From: Candidatus Omnitrophota bacterium
Lineage (GTDB): Bacteria; Omnitrophota; Gorgyraeia; Duberdicusellales; 4484-171
Assembly: GCA_028713415.1 (NCBI GenBank)
Contig: JAQTOI010000001.1
Location: forward strand, 18,651 to 82,650
DNA length: 64,000 nucleotides
Direction: 5' to 3'
This document shows, one piece after another, positions 358-55,469 of the stretch; position 1 is the stretch's first letter; each line of letters begins with the position of its first letter. Below the pieces are notes generated by a model. It searched no databases. It was not told where the DNA came from and saw nothing but the letters and a program-made list of their open reading frames with translations. The translations under genes and the position numbers were made by a program.

Positions 358-1770
358 ATGACAAGATCATTTAAAATCTACCCTTTTTATATCATTGCCG
401 ACATGATACTGGCAGCTATTATTTTCTGCTTTAGCTATTTGTTGCGATACAATCTTGTAAGCTTTGCGCCGTTTGTTTATAAAAAACCTTATCTTGAGCA
501 ATACGTTTTAATTTTCGCCTTATGGCTTCTTTTGATTATTTTTTTCTTCAGGAAAAACAGGCTTTATACGACAAATAGGGGTTTAAGCATCCCCAAAGAA
601 ATCGGCAAGGTAATTCTCAGCTTGACGTATACCGTGATTTTAATCAGCGCCGCGGTATTTCTCCTGCAATATAAGTTTTTTTCCCGTAAAATTATCGCAG
701 AAAGCTTTTTTGCGCTCTGCGTTTCTTTAAGCGCCTGGAGAGCGGTTAAAAGGACCATGCTTAGAAGAATGATCGCAAGAGGCTTGCGCAATATCAATAT
801 ACTTATAGTCGGCGCAAATGAAACGGGAAGAATTATCGCAGAGGAGACAAAACTGATACCTTGGCTTGGGTTTAAAGCCATCGGCTATCTGGATAATCAT
901 AAAGAAGGATATGTCGACGGCATACCAGTGCTTGGAAAAATTAAAGATTTTTTCGGCGTCGCCAAAAATAATTTTGTCGATGAAGTGATTATCGCTGTTA
1001 CTAGCGAAAGCAAGGAGATTGTTGAATTGATAGAGCAAGCTAAAAATCTGCATCTAGGGATAAGAAAAGTTGTCTCTAGCGACCCGGAGGCCTCATTAGT
1101 GTCCGGACGCTTAAGTTATTTCGGCACCACACCGCTTTTTACCTATAGCGCGAAACAATATAATTTAAACGGTATAATCTTCAAAAGAATTTTTGATATC
1201 ACCACAGCTTTAATATTTATTATTCTGCTTTTGCCGCTATTTGTCATTATCGCGGTATTGATTAAGCTTGATTCTCCCGGACCGGCCATTTATACTCAAG
1301 AGCGGATAGGGGTTAAGGGAGGAATCTTTAAGTTATACAAGTTCCGTTCTATGATAAAGGGAGCCGATACGCTTCAAGAAGCGTTGTTAACAAAAAACGA
1401 AGCCAAAGACGGCATCATTTTTAAAATACGCAATGACCCCCGTATAACAACTGTGGGGTATTTTATAAGAAAATACAGTTTAGATGAACTTCCGCAGTTA
1501 TTTAACGTTTTGTGCGGAGAGATGAGTATAGTCGGGCCACGGCCCCCCCTGCCTAATGAGGTAAAAAAATATAAATATTATCATTTAGACAGACTTCAGG
1601 TAAAACCGGGCATGACCGGACTTTCCCAGATAAGAGGCAGGAGCGAACTTACCTTTAGAAAGTTGGTCAAATGGGATTTGTGGTATATAAACAACTGGTC
1701 TTTGCGTCTTGACCTGAATATTTTATTCTGGACTCTTCCGGCGATACTAAAAGGGCGGGGAGCCTATTAA
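358..1770 (+). CDS. Polyprenyl-phosphate glycosyl-1-phosphate transferase (WbaP/EpsB-like bacterial sugar transferase; initiating enzyme)
   Basis: 470 aa. N-terminal multi-TM region. C-terminal Bac_transf-type domain with the motifs KRIFDI...LLLPLFVIIAVLIKLDSPGP...ERIGVKG..F.YKFRSM...DELPQL.NVL.GEMS.VGPRP. ATG start at 358. Confidence 0.8.
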   Translation: MTRSFKIYPFYIIADMILAAIIFCFSYLLRYNLVSFAPFVYKKPYLEQYVLIFALWLLLIIFFFRKNRLYTTNRGLSIPKEIGKVILSLTYTVILISAAVFLLQYKFFSRKIIAESFFALCVSLSAWRAVKRTMLRRMIARGLRNINILIVGANETGRIIAEETKLIPWLGFKAIGYLDNHKEGYVDGIPVLGKIKDFFGVAKNNFVDEVIIAVTSESKEIVELIEQAKNLHLGIRKVVSSDPEASLVSGRLSYFGTTPLFTYSAKQYNLNGIIFKRIFDITTALIFIILLLPLFVIIAVLIKLDSPGPAIYTQERIGVKGGIFKLYKFRSMIKGADTLQEALLTKNEAKDGIIFKIRNDPRITTVGYFIRKYSLDELPQLFNVLCGEMSIVGPRPPLPNEVKKYKYYHLDRLQVKPGMTGLSQIRGRSELTFRKLVKWDLWYINNWSLRLDLNILFWTLPAILKGRGAY

Positions 1771-1774
1771 ACGC

Positions 1775-2965
1775 ATGAGAAAAGAACGATACGCAAAAAT
1801 TTTCGATTATATTTGTGAATATAGCTTATACGGACTTATATTCTTCATTCCGATATCAAGTGCGGCTGTTGAGTCGTTTTTTGGCTTTGCATTTTTAGGT
1901 TTCATTCTCAAAAAAATTAGCAAACCGGATTTTAAATTCTTGGGCACTTCGTATAATTTTTTTCTTTGGTTGTTTGTTATTTTTATGTGCCTTTCATTGT
2001 TTAATAGCGGAATATATATAGAAAAAAGCCTAAAAACATTATTTTTCAAATGGCTCGAATATATTACTATTTTTATAATAGCACAGGATATCATCAATAC
2101 TAAAATACGCCTGCGTAACGCCTTAGGTATTATGCTTTTTGTGGCTGTTCTGGTGGGCATAGACGGAGTCATCCAGAAATTATGGGGCATTGAGTATTTC
2201 AGGCACAGGCCGCTGGTCCAGGCAAGCAGCGGTTTATACTTTATCAGTGGGCCATTTAATCACTATAACGCTTTCGGCACGTATTTGATGGTTACTTCCT
2301 TGATATTTACAGCTTTGTTGCTGGAGCGCAGTTTCGCAAAAAAAATTAAATTTTTTTTAGCGCTTTTTTCGATGCTATTGGTGGCATGTTTGCTATTAAC
2401 CTCTTCTCGCGGGGCCTGGATAGCTTATTTGAGCGCTTTAGGTTTAATGTTTGTAATTTCTAAAAGATTCAAAGCGGCATCCGTAATCCTTGGCCTATTT
2501 TTGATAGTGTTGTTATTTGTTCCGGGCATAAAAGAAAGGTTTAATTTCACTCTTAGCGCGCAGGGAGACGCGCGCCGGTTTGCCATATGGAGGAGCGCGT
2601 TATTGATGATTAAGGAAAACCCCTATTTAGGAAAAGGTCTGGGCACCTTTATGGATTATTTTCCGCATTACTACAAACATACAAGGAGGTTCTTCGCCCA
2701 ATACGCGCATAATTGTTTTCTGCAAATTTGGGCAGAGACGGGTATTTTTAGCTTAATCAGTTTTCTTCTCACGGTATCAGTCATATTCAAGAAGAGCCTT
2801 AAAAAAATTTTTAAAGCGCCTGACTGTTTATTAATTGCATTTACCTGCGCAATTTTCGGATTTCTTGTAAACAGCTTTTTTGACACCCAGCTTTATTCGC
2901 TGCAGCTTGCGGTATTATTCTGGATTTTATTGGGGTTAGCGGCTGCGAAAATCAATCTTGCCTAA
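1775..2965 (+). CDS. O-antigen ligase / polymerase family membrane protein (Wzy_C domain; WaaL or Wzy-like)
   Basis: 396 aa, about 10 TM segments. Characteristic Wzy_C block LLTSSRGAWIAYL and ...YAHNCFLQIWAETGIFSL. Tightly linked (4-bp gap) to the upstream priming transferase. Confidence 0.7.
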   Translation: MRKERYAKIFDYICEYSLYGLIFFIPISSAAVESFFGFAFLGFILKKISKPDFKFLGTSYNFFLWLFVIFMCLSLFNSGIYIEKSLKTLFFKWLEYITIFIIAQDIINTKIRLRNALGIMLFVAVLVGIDGVIQKLWGIEYFRHRPLVQASSGLYFISGPFNHYNAFGTYLMVTSLIFTALLLERSFAKKIKFFLALFSMLLVACLLLTSSRGAWIAYLSALGLMFVISKRFKAASVILGLFLIVLLFVPGIKERFNFTLSAQGDARRFAIWRSALLMIKENPYLGKGLGTFMDYFPHYYKHTRRFFAQYAHNCFLQIWAETGIFSLISFLLTVSVIFKKSLKKIFKAPDCLLIAFTCAIFGFLVNSFFDTQLYSLQLAVLFWILLGLAAAKINLA

Positions 2966-2991
2966 TAACATTATTTGATCCCTAAATTATT

Positions 2992-4122
2992 ATGGAGAAA
3001 GTCGACATCGTTGTAATCGGAGCAGGGGTGGTGGGGCTTGCGATAGCCGAGCGCTTGAGCAGAAAAAAGAAATCCATTTATCTCCTTGAACGCCATAGTT
3101 CATTTGGCAGAGAAACCAGCTCGCGCAATAGCGAAGTAATCCATGCGGGGATTTATTACCCTTCGGGGTCGCTTAAGGCTAAGCTTTGCGTAGAGGGCAA
3201 TAGCCTACTTTATGAAATCTGCGCTAAAGGAAATATTCCCCATAAAAGGATAGAAAAATTAATCGTGGCGACTAATCCAAGCGAAGAAGAAGAACTCATA
3301 CAGCTTCTAAATCGCGGCAAACGCAATGGTGCAAAGGGACTGGAGATTATCTCAAAAGAAGAAGTAAAAAAGCTTGAGCCGGATATAAAGGCGCGAGCAG
3401 CGCTTTATTCGCCCTCTACCGGTATAATTGACAGCCACAGCTTGATGAAATATTTCGAGGCTGCCTTTAAAGGAAAGGGCGGAGAAGTTGTTTATAACTG
3501 CCAAGTTAAGGGGCTATCTAAATCGCAAAGCGGCTATGAAGTTACCGTGGATGAGAGTACTGGCGAGACATTTAAATTCAGCGCAGCCACGGTAATTAAT
3601 AGTGCGGGTTTAGAGTCGGACACGGTCGCTTCTCTGCTTGGAATTGATATCGCCAAACAAAGTTATTCTTTAAAATACTGTAAAGGGCAATATTTTAGAG
3701 TGCAAAATCCTAAGAAATACGTACGAGTTTCAAGGCTGATCTACCCTGTGCCGCATGAGCGCGCATCAGGCCTGGGAGTCCATGCTACAAAAGATTTATC
3801 CGGAGGCTTACGTTTAGGCCCGGATGCCCGTTACGTAGAGAGAAGCGATTTTAATTATGATGTTGATGCGTCATGCCGCGGTGCTTTTCTTCAATCAGCA
3901 TTGCAACTTCTTCCTTTTTTAGAAGAAGATGATTTGGTGCCGGATACTTCCGGCATAAGGCCGAAATTGCAGGGAGAAGGCGAAGATTTCAGGGATTTTA
4001 TAATTCAGGAAGAAAGCGCTTTGGGTTTTAACGGTTTTATAAACCTTATCGGCATAGAGTCTCCGGGTTTAACCTGCGCACAGTCAATAGCGGAATATGT
4101 AGCGGACTTATTGCAAATTTAA
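2992..4122 (+). CDS. FAD-dependent oxidoreductase (LhgO / L-2-hydroxyglutarate oxidase-like DAO family)
   Basis: 376 aa. N-terminal Rossmann dinucleotide motif DIVVIGAGVVGLAIAERL. Followed by ...RNSEVIHAGIYYPSGSLKAKLCVEGN, typical of the LhgO/YgaF subfamily. Confidence 0.6.
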   Translation: MEKVDIVVIGAGVVGLAIAERLSRKKKSIYLLERHSSFGRETSSRNSEVIHAGIYYPSGSLKAKLCVEGNSLLYEICAKGNIPHKRIEKLIVATNPSEEEELIQLLNRGKRNGAKGLEIISKEEVKKLEPDIKARAALYSPSTGIIDSHSLMKYFEAAFKGKGGEVVYNCQVKGLSKSQSGYEVTVDESTGETFKFSAATVINSAGLESDTVASLLGIDIAKQSYSLKYCKGQYFRVQNPKKYVRVSRLIYPVPHERASGLGVHATKDLSGGLRLGPDARYVERSDFNYDVDASCRGAFLQSALQLLPFLEEDDLVPDTSGIRPKLQGEGEDFRDFIIQEESALGFNGFINLIGIESPGLTCAQSIAEYVADLLQI

Positions 4123-4859
4123 ATATCCTTTCGTTGATATCTCGTAAATCTTATTTTAAACAAACTACAAAGAGATTTTATCCCATCCCGCAGGGGTCTT
4201 ACTTTTGAGGTTTTCTTTTTATCGTGCCAGCGCACCGGCACTTCTTTTATTTTTAAGCCATGCTTAAAAATAAGGTAGATAAGTTCGCTGTCAAAACTCC
4301 AGTCATCACGCACAAGTTTAGAGAATAATAATTTCGCCGCCGCTTTCTTATACAATTTAAAGCCGCAATTATAGTCATTTACGGCTGTGCCTAAAATCAG
4401 CCTGGAAAGAAGAATATAGATATTCCCCAGAATAATTCTATAAAAGGGCTGGCGGGTTTCGATTATCGCTCCCGGGAGACGTCGCGAAGCAATAGCTATA
4501 TCGTAACCTTCTATGATTGCCGACATCAAGCCTTCTATCTGGTTTATGCGCGTTGAGTTATCCGCATCCATAAAAAGTATAAGCTCACCTTTCGCAGCCG
4601 ATACGCCTTCTTTTACAGAGTAACCCTTGCCGCGGTTGGGAGAATGTTCAAGCAAAGTAAAATGGGCGAATAACTTGCTTTCAAGAGCGGCAAGCGTGGC
4701 CGTTTCATCAAGTGAGCCGTCATTAACCACGATGATTTCGTAAGCATAGTTTTTATTTTTAAGGTATTGGGCAACATCCTGGAGCGTGAAAGCTATGTTG
4801 GCTCCTTCATTATAGGCAGGTATCACTATCGACAGATAAATATTATTTTCTCTCACCAT
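4119..4859 (-). CDS. GT2 polyprenyl-phosphate glycosyltransferase (dolichyl-phosphate mannose/glucose synthase-like)
   Basis: 246 aa, the only convincing minus-strand gene in the window. LSIVIPAYNEGANI...IIVVNDGSLDET...FMDADNS (DxD) are GT2 hallmarks. Convergent with the upstream + gene (4-bp overlap of stops) and divergent from 4946+. Confidence 0.75.
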   Translation of the reverse strand: MVRENNIYLSIVIPAYNEGANIAFTLQDVAQYLKNKNYAYEIIVVNDGSLDETATLAALESKLFAHFTLLEHSPNRGKGYSVKEGVSAAKGELILFMDADNSTRINQIEGLMSAIIEGYDIAIASRRLPGAIIETRQPFYRIILGNIYILLSRLILGTAVNDYNCGFKLYKKAAAKLLFSKLVRDDWSFDSELIYLIFKHGLKIKEVPVRWHDKKKTSKVRPLRDGIKSLCSLFKIRFTRYQRKDI

Positions 4860-4909
4860 AGAACAATTATTATAGCAAAAATATTAAGATTATTATATAT
4901 TTTCTTCAT

Positions 4910-4938
4910 TTGGCAATGACTGGCAAATAAAGTATAAT
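4910..4938 (+). promoter_or_regulatory. Near-consensus sigma70-type promoter. -35 TTGGCA (4910-4915), 17-bp spacer, -10 TATAAT (4933-4938). Predicted TSS about 4945, immediately before the ATG at 4946 (leaderless or near-leaderless).
   Basis: Read directly: ttTTGGCAatgactggcaaataaagTATAATataaaatATG. No Shine-Dalgarno between the -10 and the start codon. Confidence 0.5.
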
Positions 4939-4945
4939 ATAAAAT

Positions 4946-5677
4946 ATGTTTCTATCAATAGTTATCCCGGCATACAACGAAGAAAATAGGCTCCTGCCTA
5001 CCTTAGAGAAGATATATTCCTATCTGGGCAGCAACAACTTTGATTGTGAGGTTATCGTTGTGGATGACGGTTCTTTGGATAACACAAAAGATACAGCCCT
5101 CAGGAGCCAGCTCAATAATGCAGGTAAGCTCACTGTATTGCAAAATGGACGTAACAGGGGAAAAGGATTCTCCGTAAAAAGGGGTATATTAGCTTCGCAA
5201 GGGGATTATATTTTATTCAGCGACGCCGACCTCTCAACGCCCATTGAAGAGTTTGAAAAATTATTTAAGGGCGTGAAGGAGGGGTTTGACATAGTTATCG
5301 GCTCTCGTGGCGTCTTTGAGTCGGACATCAGAGTTCATCAGCCTTGGCATAGAGAGAAAATGGGTAAGATTTTTAATTTCTTTATCAAGGCGTTTATTTT
5401 TAATAATTTTAGCGATACGCAGTGCGGTTTTAAGCTTTTTAAGGGTTCTATAGCGCGGGATATCGCATCTAGTACCGTAATAGAGGGGTTTTGTTTTGAC
5501 GTTGAGATGATCTATATTGCTAAAATGCGCCGCTATAAAATTAAAGAGATTGGAGTTATATGGAATAATTCTCCGCAAAGCAGGGTTAAGATATTCGGAA
5601 GCTCAATAGGTATGTTTTATGATTTATTAAGGATAAAGGCGTTACATAAAAACTATAGTGACAGCAAACCAGCATAG
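4946..5677 (+). CDS. GT2 polyprenyl-phosphate sugar synthase (CsbB/GtrB/DPM1-like)
   Basis: 243 aa. LSIVIPAYNEENRL...VIVVDDGSLDNT...FSDADLS (DxD). Immediately followed (stop/start TAGATG) by a YfhO-like GT-C protein. Confidence 0.75.
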   Translation: MFLSIVIPAYNEENRLLPTLEKIYSYLGSNNFDCEVIVVDDGSLDNTKDTALRSQLNNAGKLTVLQNGRNRGKGFSVKRGILASQGDYILFSDADLSTPIEEFEKLFKGVKEGFDIVIGSRGVFESDIRVHQPWHREKMGKIFNFFIKAFIFNNFSDTQCGFKLFKGSIARDIASSTVIEGFCFDVEMIYIAKMRRYKIKEIGVIWNNSPQSRVKIFGSSIGMFYDLLRIKALHKNYSDSKPA

Positions 5678-7873
5678 ATGCATTTTCTAAAAAAGTATCA
5701 CCCCATATTACTTATCTTCATTATCCTGATTTTTCTTTTTCCTCTTGTGACGCTTGAAAAAAGCTTCTTAGGCGGAGATAATTTTGTTCAATTCTACCCT
5801 TGGTTTAGCGCTTATTCGGAATCGATAAAAAATCTACAGTTTCCTTTCTGGACTCCTTATATACAAAGCGGCTTTCCTTTGATGGCAGAAGGCCAGGTAG
5901 GGGGATTTTATCCGTTAAATATCGTTTTATTTTTCCTTTTACCTTTCCAAATAGCCTATAATTATTCAATAATCATACATTTTTCACTCGCAGCATTGTT
6001 CATGTATTTTTATATGCGCCGCTTGCGCATTGGAGCTAACGGGGCGCTATTCGGTAGCCTCATATTCTGCTGCGGGAGCGCTTTTGCGGGATGTTTCTAT
6101 AATATGATTACGCTAAGGACATTAGCCTGGTTTCCTTTAGTATTATTGCTGTTAGAAAAATATGCCGAAAGCAACCGCAAAAAATATTTAATCGGCGGCT
6201 CTTTAATTTTTGGTATGCAATTATTAGCCGGCTTTGTCCAGATGGCTTTATATAGCGGCTTATTCTATGGCCTCTATCATATTGTTAGATCGCGCCAAGA
6301 TAAAAAATCCTGGGCAAAAATAGGCTTAAATCTTTTTGTTCTGGCCTTTCTCGCCCTTATTCTTTATATTCCGCAATTTATTTTGAGTTGGGATTTCGTG
6401 CGTCAGTCAGTAAGAGCCCACAATGTTTCTTTGGGATTTGCTCTCTGGGGTTCATTTTCTCCGCTTGGATTTTTCGGAATGGTTTTTCCTTCAGCGACCC
6501 GGCTTATAAGAGGAGAGTTTTATGTCGGTATTATTGGGTTTATTTTTGCTGTATTCGCCATTTTTTATATAAAAGATACAAAGGAAAAAAGATTTACGCC
6601 TCTTTTTGCAATGTTAATCGCAGCGCTATTGCTGGCGCTGGGTAAATACAACCCTTTTTATACGCTTTTGGTCAAAATCTTCAAATTATATAGTTTTAGA
6701 AACCCTGCAAAATTTTTATTTTTTGGATTATTTTCTCTGTCGGTTTTTTCCGGACTGGGGTATTCTTTTCTGAATGATCCTTTAAGGTATTTCACAAAAA
6801 AAACCGCGGATTTTTTATTGAAATTATTTGCGTCAGCCGTCTTCTTATTTTTCATATTTAAATTAATTCTTCATGTTTTTAAAGCCCCGCTGCTTAAATC
6901 AGGGTATTGGTACGTTGAGAGATTCATTGCCAGCCAGCCTTATCACCGCTACAGCTTAGAATTCTACATGCATAAGGTACAAGCCATATATACTGCTTTT
7001 TCTTTATCATTGTCTATCTCAAGTAAAGGGATAATTTTTTCTTTTTTATTAATCCTTGCGGGAATGTTATTCTGTCACTGGTGTATTGTTAAACCAGGAA
7101 GAATCCGCAAATTAAAAGCAATTTGGTTTACGATTGCAATTTGCGATCTTTTCTTATATGGCTATTACATAAGCGGATTTGGGAAAAATATCATTTCATT
7201 CAATGTATTAGAGCCGCAATATAGAAATATTTACAGTATTATCAAAAGCGACAGAGATAGCTTCAGGATTTATCCTTTCAATCTTTATTCGCGCCAGCTG
7301 CCTAATTGGTGCCTGCCAAACGCAAATATGCTTTATAAGCTGGAAAGCATCGCCTCCTATACCCCGTTAATAGATTATAACTACTGGTTAAAAACAAAAG
7401 GTCTGGGCGTAATCGATGATTCGTTAGGCTTCTTACCCGCGAAAAAAGATGTTTTTACATCAGGCGCCGGTTTACTTAAAGCATTAAACGTCAAATATGT
7501 GATTACGAGCGATAAATTAGACAATGATAAATTAGAGTTAGTTGCAGAGGAAGGAATAATGCGCCTTTATAAGCTCAAAAATTATTATCCACGTTTCTTT
7601 TTTTCCGAAAATTTTGAAAATCCTACGCCCAGCGTAAGAATAACCAGTAAACTGGTTCGTTCGGGGGTTACGTCTTCTGAATTTGAAATTAACAGCGATA
7701 TCGCCGGTTACTTTATATGGTCTCAGAGTTACTCCGAACAATGGGCTGTTTATGTGGATGAGAAAAAATCCAGGGTATTTAAGCCCTATGGCATTCTGCA
7801 GGCGGTTTTTTTACCTCCGGGTGAACACCGTATTAAATTTGTGTTTTATCCGTTGACATCTGTATGTAAATAG
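5678..7873 (+). CDS. YfhO-family membrane protein (GT-C fold, polyprenyl-P-sugar dependent glycosyltransferase-like)
   Basis: 731 aa, more than 12 TM. N-terminal FLGGDNFVQFYPWF...SGFPLMAEGQ block typical of YfhO. Large C-terminal soluble domain. Paired with the upstream GT2, as in CsbB/YfhO and GtcA-type systems. Confidence 0.6.
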   Translation: MHFLKKYHPILLIFIILIFLFPLVTLEKSFLGGDNFVQFYPWFSAYSESIKNLQFPFWTPYIQSGFPLMAEGQVGGFYPLNIVLFFLLPFQIAYNYSIIIHFSLAALFMYFYMRRLRIGANGALFGSLIFCCGSAFAGCFYNMITLRTLAWFPLVLLLLEKYAESNRKKYLIGGSLIFGMQLLAGFVQMALYSGLFYGLYHIVRSRQDKKSWAKIGLNLFVLAFLALILYIPQFILSWDFVRQSVRAHNVSLGFALWGSFSPLGFFGMVFPSATRLIRGEFYVGIIGFIFAVFAIFYIKDTKEKRFTPLFAMLIAALLLALGKYNPFYTLLVKIFKLYSFRNPAKFLFFGLFSLSVFSGLGYSFLNDPLRYFTKKTADFLLKLFASAVFLFFIFKLILHVFKAPLLKSGYWYVERFIASQPYHRYSLEFYMHKVQAIYTAFSLSLSISSKGIIFSFLLILAGMLFCHWCIVKPGRIRKLKAIWFTIAICDLFLYGYYISGFGKNIISFNVLEPQYRNIYSIIKSDRDSFRIYPFNLYSRQLPNWCLPNANMLYKLESIASYTPLIDYNYWLKTKGLGVIDDSLGFLPAKKDVFTSGAGLLKALNVKYVITSDKLDNDKLELVAEEGIMRLYKLKNYYPRFFFSENFENPTPSVRITSKLVRSGVTSSEFEINSDIAGYFIWSQSYSEQWAVYVDEKKSRVFKPYGILQAVFLPPGEHRIKFVFYPLTSVCK

Positions 7874-7935
7874 ATTATTCTTGTATAATATTATTGTCAT
7901 TTTCGGCATATTAATAATAGAGAATGGAGGAATAA

Positions 7936-45883: not shown

Positions 45884-45889
45884 AAACTT

Positions 45890-46969: not shown

Positions 46970-47076
46970 TTGCCACCGGCCGCAGGCTACAAGCTACAGG
47001 CCTCAAAATTACAAAGCCATATTTTATTTAGCCGGAAGCTTGCAGCCCGGAGCTTGTAGCGAAAAGTAACATATTT

Positions 47077-48204
47077 ATGAAAGTTGCCTTAGTCCACGAT
47101 TGGCTCACCGGAATGCGGGGCGGGGAGAAGGTCCTTGAAGTTCTCTGTGAACTTTTTCCCCAATCTCAAATCTTTACTCTATTGCATAAAAAGGGTACAC
47201 TTTCATCCACCATAGAGGGCATGCCCATAAAAACTTCATTTCTTCAGTTTTTTCCTTCAATAGAACAGAATTATAGAAATTATCTCCCGTTCTTCCCTTT
47301 GGCGATTGAAAGTTTCGATTTTAAAGGTTTCGATTTAATTATCAGTTCTTCCCATTGCGTGGCAAAAGCTGCCAAAGCGCCAAAAGGAGCAAAACATTTT
47401 TGTTATTGTCATGCGCCGATGCGTTACGTATGGAACTTTTTTGACCAATACTTCGGAGCTTATCCGGCTTGGAAAAAGGGATTTATCAAATTTATCTCAA
47501 AAGACCTTAGGCGTTGGGACAGGCGGACCGTAGCCCGGGTTGATGAATTTATCGCTAATTCAGAAACCGTTAGAAAGCGCATACGTGATATTTATAACCG
47601 CAAGGCTTCGGTTATCTACCCGCCGGTTGATGTCGAGCAGTTCACTATTGATACGAATGTTAAGCGCGGTGATTTTTATTTGTGCGTATCGGCCCTGGTG
47701 CCGTATAAACGTATTGGTATCGTAATTGACGCTTTTAACGAAATGCGAGATAAAAGACTGATCATTGTTGGGGACGGTAATTCGCGAAGTGAATTGGAAA
47801 AAAGAAAAATATCTGATAATATATCTTTTAAAGGCTGGGTCAAGCCCGAAGACTTGTTAAGCTTATACAGAAAAGCAAGAGCTTTCGTTTACGCGGCAGA
47901 AGAAGATTTTGGTATAGCTCCAGTGGAGGCGCAGGCTGCGGGTTTACCTGTTATTGCTTATGGAGCAGGCGGAGTATCTGAGACGGTAATTCCGCTAAAC
48001 GGAACTTATCGTCGAGATGCGCCCACGGGAGTGTTCTTCTTTGAACAAAAGCCAGAAGCCCTGATAGCTGCGATTGAAGAATTTGAACGAAGAGAGAAGG
48101 AGCTTTCTCCAATTCTTATGCGCCAGAATGCATTGCGGTTCTCAAGAGAAAGTTTCAAAAATAATATACGCGAATTTTTAGAAAAACGCGTTGGGAAAAT
48201 TTAA
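47077..48204 (+). CDS. GT4 family glycosyltransferase
   Basis: 375 aa. MKVALVHDWLTGMRGGEKVLEVL N-terminus. ...EDFGIAPVEAQAAGLPVIAYGAGG. Confidence 0.7.
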   Translation: MKVALVHDWLTGMRGGEKVLEVLCELFPQSQIFTLLHKKGTLSSTIEGMPIKTSFLQFFPSIEQNYRNYLPFFPLAIESFDFKGFDLIISSSHCVAKAAKAPKGAKHFCYCHAPMRYVWNFFDQYFGAYPAWKKGFIKFISKDLRRWDRRTVARVDEFIANSETVRKRIRDIYNRKASVIYPPVDVEQFTIDTNVKRGDFYLCVSALVPYKRIGIVIDAFNEMRDKRLIIVGDGNSRSELEKRKISDNISFKGWVKPEDLLSLYRKARAFVYAAEEDFGIAPVEAQAAGLPVIAYGAGGVSETVIPLNGTYRRDAPTGVFFFEQKPEALIAAIEEFERREKELSPILMRQNALRFSRESFKNNIREFLEKRVGKI

Positions 48205-49607: not shown

Positions 49608-49680
49608 AACCGCGAAGCCGCAAAAGCACCGCAAAAGCGCAAAAGGATATAAGGGGCGACCTCGCAGAAGGCGCAAAAAA

Positions 49681-50370
49681 ATGAAGCTTTCAGTATTAAT
49701 ACCTATCTATAATGAGATAGCTACATTAACTGCAATTATTGAGAAAATTTCATCAGTTGACCTAGAGAAGGAACTTATTATTGTTGATGATTGTTCAACT
49801 GATGGCTCACGCGAGCTTCTCCTTAAGACCTATGCTAATCGCAAGGATGTAAGAATTATTTGCCATCAGCAGAATTTGGGCAAAGGCGCGGCCGTAAGAG
49901 AAGCTCTTCAGTATGCACAAGGTGAATATACGATTATTCAGGATGCCGATTTAGAGTATGACCCTAAAGATTACCTATTGCTTCTTGAAGCAGCCCAAAA
50001 TTATAATACGGGAGTAATTTACGGGTCGCGGTTTAAATCAACCTGGCGCGCTACTTCGCTGTGGCATTTTATAGTTAATAAGCTTTTGACAGAAGCAACT
50101 AATTTACTCTTTGGCTCCAGGCTTACAGATATGGAGACATGTTACAAAATAATACGCACTGATATTTTTAAAAGCTTACAGCTTGAATCCCGGCATTTTG
50201 AAATTGAGCCGGAGATAACAGCTAAACTTCTCAAAAAAGGCCATACGATTATTGAAATCCCGATTTCTTATAAAGGCAGATCATACCATGAGGGTAAAAA
50301 AATCTCATGGGTTGATGGGCTTATTACGCTTTGGGTTTTGCTTAAATCTAAATTTTCCGTGAATAATTAA
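49681..50370 (+). CDS. GT2 polyprenyl-phosphate sugar synthase (DPM1-like)
   Basis: 229 aa. LSVLIPIYNEIATL...LIIVDDCSTDGS...IIQDADLEYDP. Confidence 0.7.
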   Translation: MKLSVLIPIYNEIATLTAIIEKISSVDLEKELIIVDDCSTDGSRELLLKTYANRKDVRIICHQQNLGKGAAVREALQYAQGEYTIIQDADLEYDPKDYLLLLEAAQNYNTGVIYGSRFKSTWRATSLWHFIVNKLLTEATNLLFGSRLTDMETCYKIIRTDIFKSLQLESRHFEIEPEITAKLLKKGHTIIEIPISYKGRSYHEGKKISWVDGLITLWVLLKSKFSVNN

Positions 50371-50378
50371 TTTTTAAA

Positions 50379-51689
50379 ATGTTAACAAGAAAAGATCCTT
50401 CGGCCTTACCCCCTCAGGATGACCCTTCACTAATCGGAAAGGCTCTGCGAGTGGTCAATTACCTAACCGAATTTTTTTTATATCTCTTGGCTTTTGGCGT
50501 TACCTTTGCCAATTCAGTGGTTGAGGTTGGTGCCGGTTTCATTATCTTTTGCTTCATATTAAAGCGCATTATATTGAAAGATTTCAAATTTAAAGCGCGA
50601 CCTACTGTTTTTGCGTTGTTTCTTTATTTTGCGTGGCTTTTATGCTCGCTTTTCTACAGTGATTACCGCCAGGATAGCTTTGAGCGAATCTTGCGTTGGC
50701 TGCGTTACATATTTGTTTTTTTAGCGCTAGTTGATTATTTTGTTGAGGATGAAAAAAGAATCAAACGTTTTTTCTGGGCCTTCATTTCCATCGCAGTTTT
50801 TACGTTTATTAACGGTATTTTTCAGGAATTAACTGGTTTTTCAATATTGCGCCACGACCGTACGGTAAATCCCTTGGATATTATGCATAGAATCAGCGCT
50901 TCATTTGTCCATCCCAATGATTTCGGGGCTTACATAATTACAGCTCTTCCTTTGACATTTGTATTTATGTTGCGTTCTTTAAAAAATTGGCAAAGAGCGC
51001 TATTGATTGCGGCTTGCATCCTTGGGTTTTACTGCCTCCTTAAAACATCATCGCGTGGCGCCTGGGTGGGTTTCTTTGTGGGTATAGTTATATTTGCTTC
51101 CTTCTATAACAAAAAAATTACGATCGCTATACCGATTGCACTTATTTTGGTTCTTTTGTTTGTTCCTGGTGTACGCAGCCGCGCAATGAGCTTATTTTCC
51201 CCTGAACACAATACTGTTTGGGAAAGAACTCAACTTTGGCAGGGGACTATAGCCATGATAAAAGAACATCCCATAAAAGGTTTCGGCCTTAATACTTATT
51301 CTAAATACTTCCCAATTTACAAACCGGCTGATTATCCTGATCTGCGCTATGCGCATAATTGCTTCTTGCAAATGTGGGCTGAAATAGGCTTGGTGGGTTT
51401 GCTTATTTTTATTGGTATTATCGGGACAGTTTTCATTACGGTCATAAGGGGCTTGAACAAAAAGAAAAATAAAGGCTTTGAAGGTTTACTTATAACCGCT
51501 TCTCTGGCCGGTTATACCGCGTATCTTGTGCAAAGCGCTTTAGACACCAATCTTTACTCGCTTGCGCTTACGTTTCATTTCTGGGTCCTGACCGCCTATC
51601 TTATTTCCGTGAATAAAATTCTTGAGGAAGATTTTTCGGATGAGCCCTCGCTAATCAAGAAATCTCAAGGAGGTCGATTACATGCCTAA
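50379..51689 (+). CDS. O-antigen ligase / polymerase family membrane protein (Wzy_C), second copy
   Basis: 436 aa. LLKTSSRGAWVGF and ...YAHNCFLQMWAEIGLVGL, the same signature blocks as 1775-2965. Confidence 0.7.
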   Translation: MLTRKDPSALPPQDDPSLIGKALRVVNYLTEFFLYLLAFGVTFANSVVEVGAGFIIFCFILKRIILKDFKFKARPTVFALFLYFAWLLCSLFYSDYRQDSFERILRWLRYIFVFLALVDYFVEDEKRIKRFFWAFISIAVFTFINGIFQELTGFSILRHDRTVNPLDIMHRISASFVHPNDFGAYIITALPLTFVFMLRSLKNWQRALLIAACILGFYCLLKTSSRGAWVGFFVGIVIFASFYNKKITIAIPIALILVLLFVPGVRSRAMSLFSPEHNTVWERTQLWQGTIAMIKEHPIKGFGLNTYSKYFPIYKPADYPDLRYAHNCFLQMWAEIGLVGLLIFIGIIGTVFITVIRGLNKKKNKGFEGLLITASLAGYTAYLVQSALDTNLYSLALTFHFWVLTAYLISVNKILEEDFSDEPSLIKKSQGGRLHA

Positions 51690-52473
51690 AGGCTACACTA
51701 TATCAGCGGTCATCTTGAGCCTGAACTCTGAGAAGAAGATTCCAGCTTGCCTTGAGTCTCTTGTGGGTTGGGCCGATGAGATTATTGTGGTTGACGGAGA
51801 AAGTAAGGATAGAACTGGCGCGATTGCATCAAAATACGGGGCAAAATTTTATTCGCATGAATTTCTGGGAGAATTTTCCAAGGAGAGAAATTTCGGTATA
51901 GAGCGCGCCACTAAAGAGTGGGTTTTGCAATTGGACAGCGATGAAGTGGTAAGTGCAGGTTTTAAAGAAGCCTGTAACCGGATTTTACCTTCGACTGACT
52001 GCGCCGCTTTTAAATTTTTGCGCAAGAACTGCTTCCTGGGGCATTTTTTCACTTATGGAGGCTGGTATCACCATTCTCAGCACCTGCTCAAAAAAGGGTT
52101 GGCTCATTATGAGGGTAGGGTCCATGAGCGCATGATTGTTAACGGTAAGGTTGGCCAGTTGCCGGCCGATATTTTGCATTTCCCTTTTGATAGCATAAGC
52201 GAATTTATTGAGCGCCAAAACCGCTACACTGATTTGCAAGCGCAGGATATTATTGACGAAGAAGTCACGCTCGATATAAAGAAAATTAAATACAACATTA
52301 CCTGGAAACCCTTAAAACTGTTCAAAAAAATGTATTGGAGCAAGAAAGGTTACAAAGAAGGGATGCATGGCTTAATATTTTCTATTCTTTTTAGCTATGT
52401 TCATTTTTTAAAGTGGGCCAAGGTTTGGGAAAGGATTGGAGGTAAGAAAGGTGACACTGAGTCTAAAACATAA
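51682..52473 (+). CDS. GT2 family glycosyltransferase (LPS-core-type GT2)
   Basis: 263 aa. ISAVILSLNSEKKI...IIVVDGESKDRT...LDSDEVV. Confidence 0.65.
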   Translation: MPKGYTISAVILSLNSEKKIPACLESLVGWADEIIVVDGESKDRTGAIASKYGAKFYSHEFLGEFSKERNFGIERATKEWVLQLDSDEVVSAGFKEACNRILPSTDCAAFKFLRKNCFLGHFFTYGGWYHHSQHLLKKGLAHYEGRVHERMIVNGKVGQLPADILHFPFDSISEFIERQNRYTDLQAQDIIDEEVTLDIKKIKYNITWKPLKLFKKMYWSKKGYKEGMHGLIFSILFSYVHFLKWAKVWERIGGKKGDTESKT

Positions 52474-53203
52474 CGAGATAGAAGATTTTTATTTTAACGG
52501 GCAGCTTCCTTACGCCAACAGGTTATTCTTTATTCAGCATCTGGCGCCCTATGTATTTTTTAATCCTACATGCCGCAACAAAAAAATTTTAGAGATAGGT
52601 ATAGGAGATGGGTTCGGCACGTATTATCTATCAAAAGGCGCTGATTCAATGGTTGGCTTAGACATGGACATAGAGAGTTGCCGTTCGCTTAGTAAATATG
52701 CCCTAAGGCGCGGCGCAACCGCCTTAAGAAGCGTCAACGCTAACGCTTTGGCGCTACCCTTTAAAGACCGTTCGTTCGATCACGCGATAACATGTCAGGT
52801 TATAGAGCATATCCAAGAGGACAATCTTTCTTTATTCTTAAAAGAGATATATAGGGTTCTTGTGCCTGGCGGGAGCTGCCTTATTGTTACCTTAAACGTA
52901 GAAAACAATATAAAAAATCCAAAAACATACGAAAAATTTTATCAGCACCATAAAGAGTTCAATAAGAAAGAGCTTGGCGCTTTGCTGCGCACAGTGTTTT
53001 CTAATACAGAAATATTCGGATTAGAAGTGACTATTAAGCATAGATTTTTTCGAAGGCTGAAAAAATGGGGACTGAATAATTATCGTCTGGGTGGCCTTAA
53101 TCCGGTAGCGGGTTTTTATCGCAATATATTGCCTCGTGATTTTTTTATTTCACGCAGAGTAACGAAGCATTCGCTTGATTTAATCGGATTATGCCGGAAG
53201 TAG
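52436..53203 (+). CDS. Class I SAM-dependent methyltransferase
   Basis: ORF-track start is a TTG. GTG at 52450 preceded by GGAGG is the more plausible start. ILEIGIGDGFGTYYL...VIEHI. Confidence 0.65.
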   Translation: MEVRKVTLSLKHNEIEDFYFNGQLPYANRLFFIQHLAPYVFFNPTCRNKKILEIGIGDGFGTYYLSKGADSMVGLDMDIESCRSLSKYALRRGATALRSVNANALALPFKDRSFDHAITCQVIEHIQEDNLSLFLKEIYRVLVPGGSCLIVTLNVENNIKNPKTYEKFYQHHKEFNKKELGALLRTVFSNTEIFGLEVTIKHRFFRRLKKWGLNNYRLGGLNPVAGFYRNILPRDFFISRRVTKHSLDLIGLCRK

Positions 53204-53274
53204 AGCCCCGGCATTAAATACTTATCGCGCGAATCTTCAGCGTAACATAAAATATAATAGTAAGTTAAACCTGC

Positions 53275-54237
53275 ATGCACAAAATGATGCGTAATATTGT
53301 TTTTATCCGTTCTGATAGATTGGGGGAATTTTTGCTTAGCCTTTATGCCCTTAAGCTGGTACGGATTAATCAGCCGCAGGCGCGAGTTCATCTTATTGCG
53401 CAGAAAGAAAATCTTGAGTTAATCCGCGGCATTGATTGTGTGGATAATTACGTTGAATACAATGAGCGTATTTTTAGCGGCTTTTCAGGCGCATTTCGGC
53501 TGGCCGCAATGATAAGGAAAACTGCATGTGATTGCGTTATTGTTCTTAACCCTAAAAAAGAGTTTCATCTGGCAGCATGGCTTTCGGGTTCACCAATACG
53601 CGCAGGCTACAGGAGAAAATGGGGTTTTTGTTTAAACAAAAAGATAGAAGACCTTAAATTCCAGGGAGTAAAACATGAGATAGAATATAATCTTGACTTG
53701 ATAAAACCTATCTGCGAGAAATTTTTTATCCCTGAAGTTAACTTAAGCGTCGATTCTCAAGGCTCGCTTGAATTTTTAAAGCCCACTTTTAACCTTGATA
53801 AAAAATATGTAGTTATCCATCCTTTTACTTCGCATGGCCAGAAAAAAATAGTAAATGATTTTTGGCTAAAGCTTATAAATGCGCTTACTGCCTGTGGCAT
53901 AACCGACATAGCGCTGGTAGGAGGAGCTAATGAGGTGCAGGAAAGCAGGGAATTTGAAGGCATCACGAAAGTAAAAAACTTTGTAGGAAAACTTTCCTTA
54001 CGTAATCTGGCGGCCTTTTTAAAATATAACTGTTTTGCTTTTATCGGCCTTGATTCAGGCCCCATGCACCTGGCGAGCATCTTAGAAATTCCAACAGTAG
54101 GGTTATTCAGGGCGTCTTCTTCCAGACGCTGGGGGCCTTATCAAAAAGGCTCCTTGGTAATCGAAGGCGCAGATATAAATACTTTTATCGCAAAAATAGA
54201 AAATATTGTTTCTTTTGTGAAGAAAAATAAAAAATAA
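53275..54237 (+). CDS. Glycosyltransferase family 9 (ADP-heptose:LPS heptosyltransferase-like)
   Basis: 320 aa. NIVFIRSDRLGEFLLSLYALKLVR N-terminus and ...GLDSGPMHLASIL are typical of GT9 (RfaF/WaaC/WaaQ family). Confidence 0.7.
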   Translation: MHKMMRNIVFIRSDRLGEFLLSLYALKLVRINQPQARVHLIAQKENLELIRGIDCVDNYVEYNERIFSGFSGAFRLAAMIRKTACDCVIVLNPKKEFHLAAWLSGSPIRAGYRRKWGFCLNKKIEDLKFQGVKHEIEYNLDLIKPICEKFFIPEVNLSVDSQGSLEFLKPTFNLDKKYVVIHPFTSHGQKKIVNDFWLKLINALTACGITDIALVGGANEVQESREFEGITKVKNFVGKLSLRNLAAFLKYNCFAFIGLDSGPMHLASILEIPTVGLFRASSSRRWGPYQKGSLVIEGADINTFIAKIENIVSFVKKNKK

Positions 54238-54242
54238 ATCTC

Positions 54243-55469
54243 ATGAAATTAAAAAAGAGGCATTTCATAGCCCTTATTTTCATTCCTATGTTTTTCGGGT
54301 TATTTTTCAGCTACCTTCATAGGGCGCCAAAAAGGAATTATTCCGATTTCAGAGTATATTACGCGACCGCGCAGCGCTTCGTAGCTCATGAGGATATCTA
54401 CAGCCGGCCAGATGAAGCGATTACCCCCTTTAAATATTCTCCCACCTTTGCCATGCTTATGGCGCCATTGGCGTTAGTCCCGCAAAAAAACGCAAGCCTT
54501 ATTTTCTTTACCTTTAATTTTGTTGCCATGCTTTGCGTTTTTGCCTTCTGCAAAAAAATTATTGTGCAGGATAAAACTTCTTATGGTGAGAATATTTTGC
54601 TCTATGGTGCCTGCGGTCTTTTTAGCTCCAGGTTTCTTCTACAAGTGTTAAACTCCGGACAGGTGACAATCTTTATGTTCGCCTTAATCGTTGCAGGGCT
54701 TTATCTGTTTGAGAAGAGAAAAGAGGCGCTCTCAGGCGCCATGCTTGCCTTATCTGTCATGATTAAATATACTTCAGCACTTTTTTTACCGTATTTTATT
54801 TTCAGGAAAAAAAGACAAGTTGCGTTTCTAATCATGATATTCGTAGCATTCTATTGCCTGCTCCCGGCTCTTTACGTAGGCCTAGAAAAAGAAGCGAATT
54901 ACCTTAAAAAATGGCTCCCTTTTATCAGTGACACTTCGCTGGATTCGGGCTCTTTGTATGACTATAAGAATCAATCTTTTTTTTCGCTTATTTTGCGCTA
55001 TTTTACCAAGGATTCTCCATATCAGGTTTCAATTCTTCATTTAAGTTTTAACCAGGGGCTAGCTTTTGCATTTGTTTTGGGTTTGGCCATATATGTCATG
55101 ATACTTTATCGTAAAGGCGAAAGCAAATTTTACCGCTCCCTGGATTATTCGCTGCTCTTTATAGCCATGGCGTTTTTTAACCCCAACGCCTGGATGACTA
55201 ATTTTATTTTTTTGATCCCGGCCTACATGTTTTTACTTTATTATTTAATACGAGTACGCTTCAAAGATATACTTACAATTATTCTTGTGGCGCTTTCCTT
55301 TGCGCTGGCTAGCTGGGGGAGCGAGTCAATTGTCGGAAATGATATAGAGAATCTGCTGGAAGTGCTATCTTGCGTAACTATATCAGGGCTACTTTTGATG
55401 GCAGCATTGTTTAGATTAAAATTTGATAAAAAATTGCGCGGATTTAATAACGATTACGCTGATTTTTAG
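54243..55469 (+). CDS. Polytopic membrane protein, possible GT87/DUF2029-like mannosyltransferase-type GT-C
   Basis: 408 aa, about 10-12 TM helices. Assignment by overall architecture and context only. Confidence 0.3.
   Translation: MKLKKRHFIALIFIPMFFGLFFSYLHRAPKRNYSDFRVYYATAQRFVAHEDIYSRPDEAITPFKYSPTFAMLMAPLALVPQKNASLIFFTFNFVAMLCVFAFCKKIIVQDKTSYGENILLYGACGLFSSRFLLQVLNSGQVTIFMFALIVAGLYLFEKRKEALSGAMLALSVMIKYTSALFLPYFIFRKKRQVAFLIMIFVAFYCLLPALYVGLEKEANYLKKWLPFISDTSLDSGSLYDYKNQSFFSLILRYFTKDSPYQVSILHLSFNQGLAFAFVLGLAIYVMILYRKGESKFYRSLDYSLLFIAMAFFNPNAWMTNFIFLIPAYMFLLYYLIRVRFKDILTIILVALSFALASWGSESIVGNDIENLLEVLSCVTISGLLLMAALFRLKFDKKLRGFNNDYADF

Follow-up and report, generated by a model that had tools for sequence, protein, structure and literature searches.

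The subject of this work is a gene cluster for cell-surface sugars in a 64-kb stretch of DNA from Candidatus Omnitrophota bacterium (assembly GCA_028713415.1, contig JAQTOI010000001.1, positions 18,651 to 82,650; the whole stretch is called the window below). The cluster is real, it covers at least 66 kb when its upstream part is included, and every part of it comes from a known enzyme class. The comparisons described below make it likely that it is the main cell-surface glycan locus of this organism, a vertically inherited chromosomal supercluster whose arms are conserved and whose centre can be exchanged. The Omnitrophota have not been cultured, and their surface chemistry is little known; they are ultra-small bacteria that probably live as predators or in dependence on a host. 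For their surface glycan the locus supplies a concrete list of parts that can be tested. A conserved chromosomal locus with a swappable nonulosonic-acid centre is a pattern which usually marks phage or host-recognition pressure. In the literature searched, only two preprints, both from 2026, bring up polysaccharide cassettes of this phylum; they treat them as hypervariable regions of complete genomes and do not dissect them, and a survey of the phylum published in 2023 contains no discussion of envelope glycans (PMC10066038). What is new in the present analysis is the combination and density of the enzymes, the arm-plus-cassette architecture in Omnitrophota and the regulator. As all the enzyme classes were already known, the gain is in annotation and comparison rather than in concept. 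The analysis also provides a probable function, that of a pseudaminic acid (Pse) transferase, for a family without a Pfam model, and flags a small, highly conserved candidate regulator next to which a candidate operator is evident.

Scans with Pfam and NCBIfam profile hidden Markov models (HMMs) covered all 53 main open reading frames (ORFs) of the window. Positions 358-55469 contain 50 genes (49 large ORFs and one small ORF), of which 49 are on the + strand, the only exception being the gene at 4119-4859. This is in line with the first-pass annotation, which had described about 50 consecutive genes, all but one in the same direction, and the scans also agree with the enzyme families assigned there. 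The content of the cluster is wholly glycan-related: two priming transferases, two Wzy_C proteins, one Wzx flippase, glycosyltransferases (GTs) of the GT-C (six), GT2 (seven), GT4 (four) and GT9 (one) classes, six S-adenosylmethionine (SAM)-dependent methyltransferases, a B12-binding radical SAM protein, about 14 sugar-nucleotide enzymes, a flavin adenine dinucleotide (FAD)-dependent oxidoreductase, a GNAT protein and a GH76-like protein. The tight packing noted previously was found again, the same-strand junctions including five ATGA/GTGA overlaps of 4 nt, one TAATG overlap of 1 nt, four longer overlaps (7-13 nt) and fifteen gaps that do not exceed 10 nt. An Rfam scan of the window at gathering thresholds returned no match.

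The left end of the proposed span had to be revised: the cluster does not start at position 358. Positions 3-200 encode, on the + strand, the C-terminal end of a WecG/TagA (GT26) protein (frame-3 translation GAFDVIAGASKRAPKWVQATGLEWLYRCIQEPQRLAKRYF), and the same gene matches PF03808 (Glyco_tran_WecG) in L082, an independent Logan contig, which is 100% identical to the window over positions 1-11770. L082 carries, between its positions 1 and 9843, ten genes co-directional with the cluster, in the order partial ORF, short ORF, B12 radical SAM protein, GT2, PMT-family GT-C, GT4, Wzm, Wzt, Epimerase_2 and WecG, and it is because of these genes that the cluster is at least 66 kb long. The upstream GT2 has two C-terminal transmembrane (TM) segments, the upstream PMT protein (678 aa) is a seventh GT-C, and the Wzm (ABC2_membrane)/Wzt (ABC_tran) pair (L082 6470-7991) lies some 2-3.5 kb before the window begins. 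The leftmost part of L082 (98-547) contains an ORF without family, which shows no similarity to the GH76-like protein of the window.

Conserved arms around a variable centre

The polynucleotide phosphorylase (PNPase) encoded in the right flank has its closest matches in Candidatus Omnitrophota assemblies (84% and 78% identity). A metagenome scan for relatives with the GT87 protein, which is encoded at the right end of the cluster, found none, and the scan was successful when it was repeated with an xseA alignment. In the xseA-centred Joint Genome Institute (JGI) metagenome loci obtained in this way (PNPase about 69% identical) the right-arm order is kept, with proteins 43-75% identical to those of the window. 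The order in the relatives is GT4, GT4, priming transferase, Wzy_C, GT2, about 1.1 kb, GT9, an extra GT2, GT87, xseA, M48 peptidase, pnp and ftsK. The right arm is kept in eight related loci; the closer L002 and L003 show GT87-xseA and their contigs end there. Orthologs of the right-end genes are directly upstream of xseA in L002, L003, L084-L087, L089 and L116, and in distant relatives (xseA at most 55% identical) other genes occupy this place. At the level of single proteins, the two GT4s that precede the second priming transferase have 47-59% identical orthologs, and this transferase itself (g43, 48204-49607) 59-61% identical ones, in L084, L085, L087 and L089. In the relatives the orthologs of the Wzy_C protein g45 and of the GT2 g46 are 43-50% and 69-75% identical, respectively, and there are none for the small GT2 g44 and the methyltransferase g47.

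The left arm was found in the relatives through homologs of a small helix-turn-helix (HTH) protein (see below), on the same two long contigs that carry the right arm. The order in Ga0265297_10000360 is DAO, GT2 (minus strand), GT2, PMT, YfhO, PMT, HTH and nonulosonic-acid genes, and the left-arm order of Ga0172370_10000112 is identical to it. The distance between the HTH gene and xseA is 32.1 kb in the former, 32.7 kb in the latter and 40.5 kb in the window, and the orientation is the same. On these long contigs the orthologs of the plus-strand small GT2 are 59-60%, the left-arm PMT orthologs 34-40% and the HTH protein 88% identical to their counterparts. The FAD-dependent oxidoreductase g03 (2992-4122) is 63%, the small GT2 g04 (4119-4859) 69-71% and the YfhO-family GT-C g06 (5678-7873) 40% identical to its orthologs in L126 and L128, where the g04 ortholog is also on the minus strand. 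For the small GT2 g05 (4946-5677) orthologs with 57-60% identity were found in L124, L125, L126 and L128. The last gene of the left arm, the PMT-family GT-C g11 (13331-15004), stands immediately before the HTH gene, and a PMT gene has this position in L117, L119, L126 and L128 as well.

Between the arms, L128/Ga0172370 contains a set of genes of the legionaminic acid (Leg) type (PglD-like acetyltransferase, NeuB, a second Epimerase_2-family 2-epimerase, NTP transferase, GFO/IDH/MocA and CTP_transf_3), followed by a LIC12162/Glyphos_transf transferase, at the place where the window has genes for Pse. By comparison of these loci the centre is a variable, exchangeable nonulosonic-acid cassette between conserved arms. 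The base composition of the region to the right of the Pse genes fits with cassette exchange. The block at 30127-36274 (all + strand, Pfam assignments) consists of two methyltransferases, a GT2 (31583-32524) with two C-terminal TM segments, a WecB-like epimerase, a methyltransferase, a GT2 and another methyltransferase, and has a GC content of 0.34-0.39 and a GC content at third codon positions (GC3) of 0.32-0.40, whereas the flanking housekeeping genes have a GC3 of 0.43-0.45. GC3 values of 0.32-0.40 extend over the genes between 26.7 and 38 kb, and are also found in g39, g40 and g44 (0.335 in the last of these); it is the lower GC3 at 26.7-38 kb and in g44 that fits with exchange.

The pseudaminic-acid cassette, its candidate transferase and its candidate regulator

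The genes of the cassette (15365-26740) are all on the + strand. PseB (15365-16351; TIGR03589, 510.6 bits, cutoff 407.75) and PseC (16306-17502; TIGR03588, 520.1 bits, cutoff 423.5) are followed, at 17499-22869, by an aldo-keto reductase, a CTP_transf_3 cytidylyltransferase, a B12 radical SAM protein, a SAM methyltransferase and a class-III aminotransferase. The assignment of these five Pse-modifying or -activating genes comes from Pfam, none of them attains an NCBIfam equivalog cutoff, and orthologs of the reductase, the cytidylyltransferase and the class-III aminotransferase are present in L126. The Pfam and NCBIfam assignments in the last part (22877-26740) are PseG (TIGR03590, 155.6 bits, cutoff 153.55), a formyltransferase-like protein, a PIG-L deacetylase, a PseH-like GNAT and PseI (TIGR03586, 464.9 bits, cutoff 340.25). 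As judged by profile matches, the cassette appears to encode a complete Pse pathway, in which PseB, PseC, PseG and PseI exceed the equivalog cutoffs and are accompanied by the PseH-like GNAT and the cytidylyltransferase. The additional enzymes (B12 radical SAM protein, class-III aminotransferase, aldo-keto reductase, formyltransferase-like protein, PIG-L protein and methyltransferase) lead us to predict a different Pse derivative, one with altered N-acyl groups (N-formyl or other) and possibly with a C-methyl group.

B12-binding radical SAM genes recur in the glycan clusters that we have compared. There are two in the extended locus (window 19154-20581 and L082 732-2183), and others are in L117, L119, L121, L124 and L125. 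Their nearest models, HpnJ and BchE, are matched far under cutoff. Enzymes of this class may use radical chemistry to C-methylate or rearrange sugars or their acyl groups.

Directly downstream of the Pse genes is g24 (26749-28479, + strand, 576 aa), the sole ORF without a Pfam hit, which is recorded in the databases as a hypothetical protein. It has about ten close cluster homologs, and its profile retrieves 119 representatives at E <= 1e-30. An AlphaFold2 model (predicted local distance difference test score 78.8) has the GT-B fold and matches WecB, MshA, TarL and TagF. Residues H448-P449 and D306/D308 (acidic DED motif) are invariant in the homologs; HP and acidic motifs are signatures of bacterial sialyl-type transferases (PMC5420450). 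The match of g24 to NF046086 (BFO_1060_trans) is weak, 28 bits against a cutoff of 200, i.e. below the curated membership threshold, and this model is matched, again always below the cutoff, by all ten distant relatives of g24 that were sampled. BFO_1060 is an ortholog of the genetically validated Pse/Leg transferases of Tannerella forsythia (PMC5420450). In P0213, a distant relative of 856 aa, the family domain is joined to a cytidylyltransferase of the KdsB/CTP_transf_3 type, which links the family to CMP-activated sugars. As to the gene context, the homologs in L117 and L119 stand, as in the window, after nonulosonic-acid genes and before Wzx, and the L126 homolog follows nonulosonic-acid genes at the end of the segment; in L121 the flanking genes differ. 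On the basis of the modelled fold, the motifs, the gene context and the family link, g24 is probably a CMP-pseudaminic acid transferase.

The Pse/S-layer O-glycan locus of T. forsythia (PMC5420450) is similar to this part of the window in having Pse genes and, directly downstream, a GT-B transferase of the BFO_1060/TagB-like superfamily with the HP motif. The two transferases are only distantly related (28 bits) and differ in length (445 aa in Tannerella, 576 aa here), and the window differs from the Tannerella pathway by the extra B12 radical SAM protein, class-III aminotransferase, aldo-keto reductase, formyltransferase-like protein and PIG-L protein.

The 360-bp gap between the main ORFs at 15005-15364 is occupied by a small gene (15101-15340, + strand) preceded by a GAGGAG ribosome-binding site. 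It codes for a 79-aa DNA-binding protein of the HTH_17 type (excisionase family, MamR-like), which scores 33 bits with TIGR01764 (cutoff 28.8) and 43.8 bits, under cutoff, with the MamR model. Upstream of it, at 15014-15081 on the + strand, three tandem 10-bp boxes (TTGACTACCA ATGACTATTA TTGACTAATT) are followed by a sigma-70 promoter with full consensus (TTGACA-16-TATAAT, 12/12, at 15054). The box array is unique to the 15014 site within the window, and none of 100 shuffled sequences attained the count of the window.

The HTH_17 protein is unusually well conserved, being 84-88% identical across loci whose enzymes share only 30-65% identity. In L084, L087 and L089 it is 85-88% identical, as compared with 68-69% for PNPase. 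It has more than 1000 homologous clusters, and among the best 120 (79-95% identity) the taxon-labelled ones are all Omnitrophota. The gene is the first one of a sugar-nucleotide operon in each of six contexts, one of which is a 1.14-Mb genome with a three-gene operon only. Likewise, in six of six loci two to four tandem boxes (consensus WTGAYTAYYA) directly adjoin or run into the -35 element of a promoter close to consensus (L117 3140-3481, L119 2250-2597, L126 9900-10237, L128 9900-10240, L130 9900-10237 and window 15014-15340). Within a set of 125 loci, separate from L126-L130, the box pair is restricted to the HTH heads of L117, L118 and L119. A search of the PDB with the protein sequence gave only weak or generic matches. 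Excisionase-family proteins bind tandem direct repeats, so the natural reading is an autoregulated, locus-specific regulator. We regard the HTH_17 protein as a candidate cassette regulator, and the boxes as its candidate operator, for sugar operons across the Omnitrophota.

In the first-pass annotation the cluster was punctuated by regulatory sites at 4910, 15054 and 32540. The two promoter-like sites hold: 15054 and 4910 (4910-4938, + strand, TTGGCA-17-TATAAT, 11/12, in the divergent g04/g05 gap) rank highest among such sites in the first 20 kb, and both are intergenic. The terminator at 32540 fails, its hairpin (-9.2 kcal/mol) has a z-score of -0.35 relative to shuffled sequences and is absent from the calls of the terminator scan. 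The total numbers of promoter-like and terminator-like sites are not above the shuffled expectation, thus only the individual sites 15054 and 4910 are worth keeping.

Assembly route, acceptor and alternative readings

The first-pass annotation counted at least six GT-C enzymes and suggested that one of the pathways is a lipid-carrier-dependent decoration system in the periplasm. Both suggestions are borne out at the level of family assignment. Pfam finds six GT-Cs in 358-55469, all polytopic with 8-12 hydrophobic segments, and in every one the acidic motif characteristic of this fold (HDDE, CDE, GDGLE, SDE, GGD or SDF) stands right after the first TM segment. Beside these six or, with the upstream protein, seven GT-Cs there are five small GT2s in the window and one upstream, whose top NCBIfam matches are all polyprenyl-phosphate sugar synthases (ArnC, AglJ, PgfS and PpgS; under the equivalog cutoffs). 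The topology with two C-terminal TM segments is present in two of these six candidates. The view that several glycan pathways lie side by side was likewise upheld, by the two pairs of priming transferase and Wzy_C, the single Wzx and the Wzm/Wzt pair just outside the window. The two WbaP-like priming transferases were confirmed as such, and only their placement at opposite ends needs correction: the second is about 6 kb from the right end.

A branch at 7936-15004 resembles the Arn pathway. It consists of a protein with an ArnB-like half (g07), an ArnT-family GT-C (g08), an ArnC-like GT2 (g09), a GNAT (g10) and a second GT-C (g11). The fused protein g07 (7936-10116, + strand) combines a short-chain dehydrogenase/reductase (SDR)-type dehydratase/epimerase (Epimerase, 163.7 bits) with a DegT sugar 4-aminotransferase (431.6 bits), whose best models are ArnB (411 bits, cutoff 631) and PseC (374 bits), and it is predicted to make a nucleoside diphosphate (NDP)-amino sugar. 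GT-C g08 (10113-11828, +) matches PF13231 and PF02366, and has 12 TM segments and the HDDE motif. GT2 g09 (11831-12613, +), a putative polyprenyl-phosphate aminosugar transferase, scores 195.8 bits (cutoff 529) with ArnC NF007986 and aligns to positions 8-222 of the 316 in this profile. The N-acetyltransferase domain of g10 (12561-13334, +, start codon uncertain) is at residues 148-243 (PF00583, 62.7 bits), and g11 (+) gives 46.3 bits with PF02366 and has the CDE motif. Membership in the true Arn pathway for 4-amino-4-deoxy-L-arabinose (L-Ara4N) was considered and rejected: there is no ArnA, ArnD or ArnE/F and no NCBIfam ArnT match in the branch, and the SDR domain of g07 scores 43 bits on ArnA as compared with 120 on GalE. 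Where Arn has ArnA and ArnD, the branch has a GNAT and an SDR of the GalE/dehydratase type; it is Arn-like in its working and not a member of Arn. Fusion of consecutive steps, as in g07 (SDR-DegT, 726 aa), was also seen in L126 (11348-13003), where an aldo-keto reductase is joined to CTP_transf_3 (551 aa).

From these assignments the following route can be proposed. Two WbaP/WcaJ-type enzymes would prime oligosaccharides on undecaprenyl phosphate, GT4 and GT2 enzymes would extend them in the cytoplasm with UDP-N-acetylmannosamine (UDP-ManNAc) made by WecB and with other modified sugars, the six SAM methyltransferases would methylate them, and g24 would cap them with modified Pse. Wzx would flip the product, and the two Wzy_C proteins would polymerise or ligate it. 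In parallel, five or six small GT2s may load single sugars on undecaprenyl phosphate, one of these being an amino sugar from the Arn-like branch (7936-13334), and in the periplasm six or seven GT-Cs may take these sugars from the lipid and attach them to the glycan or some other acceptor. Wzm and Wzt would add an ABC-transporter pathway directly left of the window. The promoter at 15054 would drive the central cassette, which the 79-aa HTH_17 protein probably controls via the tandem boxes. A bolder version of this scheme seems to us unlikely at present: much of a major envelope glycan would be assembled outside the cytoplasm by the GT-C battery, fed by the polyprenyl-phosphate synthases, in the way known for mycobacterial arabinomannan, and an ultra-conserved Xis-like HTH_17 protein found throughout the phylum would switch a serotype-like, exchangeable nonulosonic-acid cap by acting on tandem 10-bp boxes that abut the -35 element, a locus-specific control unrelated to RfaH/ops or UpxY/UpxZ.

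It is useful to compare the locus with known systems. Like the Wzx/Wzy loci for O-antigen or capsule (enterobacterial rfb/cps, Leptospira rfb), it contains a priming transferase, cytoplasmic GTs, Wzx, Wzy_C and sugar-nucleotide genes, runs in a single direction with tight packing, and has conserved arms with an exchangeable middle. It differs from them by its size (at least 66 kb), by having two priming transferases, two Wzy_C proteins, adjacent Wzm/Wzt genes, six or seven GT-Cs, five or six lipid-monosaccharide synthases and an internal HTH_17 head, and by the lack of Wzz/Wzc and Wza in the window ORFs and in the 10 kb upstream. The logic of three-component GT-C systems is established (PMC11127046), and PMC5836110 and PMC7389260 deal with such systems as well. 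Similarly to these (GtrA/B/C, ArnC/E/F/T, CsbB/GtcA/YfhO, GT136 pentofuranose; PMC11127046), the locus has small GT2 genes beside YfhO and PMT_2 GT-Cs, and one branch with ArnB-like, ArnC-like and ArnT-family genes. What sets it apart from these systems is the stacking of many such pairs at a single place, and the fact that the window yielded no gene for a dedicated small flippase. There is also some likeness to the mycobacterial arabinogalactan and lipomannan/lipoarabinomannan systems (Emb, Aft, PimE/GT87, MptA/B), in the presence of several GT-Cs, including a GT87, together with polyprenyl-phosphate sugar synthases and a GH76-like protein, and of MptA_B-family genes in the relatives. This similarity is one of family-level HMM matches; extracytoplasmic assembly of the backbone is a mycobacterial feature which is not evidenced here, and the host of the locus is assumed to be a diderm of a phylum related to the PVC group (Planctomycetes, Verrucomicrobia, Chlamydiae).

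The duplicated functions had been taken as a sign that two or three glycan pathways were fused into one island, and a horizontally acquired island, formed by recent fusion or duplication of foreign clusters, would also account for the GC content of 0.34-0.37 at 28-38 kb and 43-46 kb (0.41-0.45 in the housekeeping flank), for the absence of g44 and g47 from the relatives and for the description, in preprints, of hypervariable polysaccharide cassettes of Omnitrophota, which are sometimes on mobile elements. We find this quite improbable. Both arms have the same order and similar spacing in two family-level relatives, and the succession of left arm, HTH gene, nonulosonic-acid cassette, right arm and xseA is kept at 35-75% protein identity. 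A tRNA scan found no tRNA gene and the general Pfam scans no integrase or transposase; flanking direct repeats were not searched. The duplicated pairs do exist, but in an all-against-all BLASTP comparison the two priming transferases are 30%, the two Wzy_C proteins 35% and a divergent GT2 pair 39% identical, and the GT-Cs give a single weak pair (27%), most of them being without mutual match. This speaks against recent duplication and for old paralogs serving different pathways. Only the centre seems to be exchangeable, which is already part of the reading as a vertically inherited locus. Nor are size and gene mix unique: they are atypical, as stated in the first-pass annotation, in comparison with enterobacterial O-antigen clusters, and similar clusters occur in other Omnitrophota. 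In L124 (GCA_964433975.1) and L125 five GT-Cs (PMT_2, MptA_B/GT87, PMT, PMT and YfhO) lie within 12 kb, co-directional with small GT2, DegT and B12 radical SAM genes, thus GT-C-dense glycan superclusters recur in the phylum. Finally, the source is a metagenome-assembled genome, and an independent Logan assembly (SRR22315509) breaks near 22.7 kb (22683-22812) and near 32.75 kb, the second break coinciding with the gap at 32525-32651, which could point to an assembly chimera joining the glycan clusters of different organisms; the breaks could as well be due to strain-level variation of the central cassette. A chimera has next to no probability, since the large-scale order and spacing recur on two long contigs from other samples and three Logan contigs, covering the left edge, 22.8-32.75 kb and the right flank, are 100% identical to the window, which together rule it out; the composition does not change abruptly at the module borders either.

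Another question is that of the acceptor. It is possible, though we rather doubt it, that the locus serves mainly protein glycosylation (pili, S-layer, giant surface proteins) and not so much LPS or capsule, with PglL-like Wzy_C proteins and with PMT GT-Cs acting directly on proteins. The Wzy_C domain is common to PglL-type enzymes, and the PMT/PMT_2 family includes the protein O-mannosyltransferases. In L123 (ENA ERZ27247363 k141_1071786, about 10001-11722) a 56% identical ortholog of the PMT_2 GT-C at 44165-45883 adjoins genes for RHS/Tc-toxin-like giant proteins, Gly_rich_2 and type II secretion/pseudopilin proteins, and not a glycan cluster, which hints that this type of GT-C acts on proteins. 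The nearest characterised relatives of g24 cap the S-layer O-glycan of Tannerella (PMC5420450). Polysaccharide export, on the other hand, is what Wzm/Wzt and Wzx are typical of, no target protein or sequon was identified, and the GT9 heptosyltransferase-like gene of the conserved right arm points to a lipopolysaccharide (LPS) core. This gene is the only hint of an LPS core, and with it of the LPS O-antigen unit proposed in the first-pass annotation. The two uses are compatible with each other.

It must be noted that several observations weigh against our interpretation of the locus as the main, vertically inherited surface-glycan locus with the route proposed above. The length of at least 66 kb is a lower bound, as the L082 segment starts 11.3 kb left of the window and the left boundary is beyond its reach. 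The long contigs of the relatives were compared as two segments, and about 12 kb between these is outside the comparison. The PseH-like GNAT (25237-25707) scores 47.9 bits against a cutoff of 93.1, and the cytidylyltransferase (18350-19144; CTP_transf_3, 120 bits) has no PseF model match at E <= 1e-5 in NCBIfam. PDB sequence searches with the six GT-Cs gave nothing except a match of the GT87 protein to 9dm5 with E = 0.045, these proteins being too divergent for the assignment of a subfamily or donor. No lipid-monosaccharide flippase of the GtrA/GtcA, ArnE/F or MATE type was found in the window, and the cluster contains no membrane ORF of at least 40 aa that lacks an assignment, Wzx being the only flippase. 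The 53 ORFs of the window and the adjoining 10 kb upstream show no Pfam family of Wzz/Wzc or Wza; these genes may lie elsewhere in the genome. The top NCBIfam matches of the Wzy_C proteins g02 and g45 (IctB, PEP_O_lig_1 and RfaL, all under cutoff) are compatible with a polymerase, a ligase or a protein O-oligosaccharyltransferase. The sugar identities, the order of linkages and the acceptor are all deduced from sequence and not from biochemistry.

Remaining genes and the housekeeping flank

The features in this section are all on the + strand, with the exception of g04. At the left, the priming transferase g01 (358-1770) is of the WbaP/WcaJ type, with Bac_transf (225 bits) and CoA_binding_3 domains, four TM segments and a TIGR03025 score of 409 bits (cutoff 295.55). 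It is followed by the Wzy_C membrane protein g02 (1775-2965; PF04932, 77.9 bits, 11 TM segments), a ligase, polymerase or O-oligosaccharyltransferase. The oxidoreductase g03 belongs to the DAO family (PF01266, 217 bits), and it matches the L-2-hydroxyglutarate oxidase model with 254 bits, under cutoff, and PDB entry 3dme at 1.9e-78. The small GT2s g04 and g05 (PF00535, 105.7 bits for the latter) resemble polyprenyl-phosphate sugar synthases. The top NCBIfam matches of g04 are AglJ, PgfS, Dol-P-hexose transferase and PpgS, all under cutoff, and that of g05 to ArnC (63.5 bits) is also under cutoff. GT-C g06 gives 43.3 bits with PF09586, and has nine TM segments and the GGD motif after the first of these. 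Together, g03 to g06 (2992-7873) form a module of the conserved left arm.

In the right arm, the second priming transferase g43 is of the WcaJ type (TIGR03025, 425 bits, cutoff 295.55; Bac_transf and CoA_binding_3). The small GT2 g44, the Wzy_C protein g45 (50379-51689), the GT2 g46 and the methyltransferase g47 follow at 49681-53203 (Pfam). The cluster ends with g48 and g49 (53275-55469), the GT9 heptosyltransferase-like protein (PF01075, 84.5 bits) and the GT87 GT-C (54243-55469; PF09594, 102.2 bits), respectively. The housekeeping flank (55643-63670), identified by Pfam, a small-ORF check and synteny, consists of xseA, xseB (57097-57330), a gene for an M48 peptidase, rpsO (58988-59251), pnp and ftsK. 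About 680 bp (58305-58987) separate the M48 peptidase gene from rpsO. This stretch contains no plausible ORF and no Rfam match, and its DNA shows no detectable conservation with L002/L003 save for the last 44-48 bp before rpsO (from 58940).

The genes between g24 and the right arm begin with g25 (28578-30062), a Wzx flippase of the MOP family with 13 TM segments (Polysacc_synt_3, 56.1 bits, cutoff 23). To the right of the low-GC block, the region 36385-40662 codes for a PMT_2 GT-C (36385-38022, Pfam), a LegB-like 4,6-dehydratase (LegB model, 242 bits, under cutoff), a hexapeptide acyltransferase and the GH76-like protein (39541-40662). The latter is an alpha/alpha-toroid protein (GH76, 28.9 bits; PDB 4c1s, E = 0.0045), which has weak matches to GH76, GH88, GH47 and GH127 and appears to be cytoplasmic, having no signal peptide or TM segment. 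The last group (40832-48204, Pfam), with which the right arm (40832-55469) begins, comprises the UDP-GlcNAc 2-epimerase WecB, two GT4s, the PMT_2 GT-C at 44165-45883 and two further GT4s; WecB is well above its cutoff (TIGR00236, 365.7 bits, cutoff 210.15).

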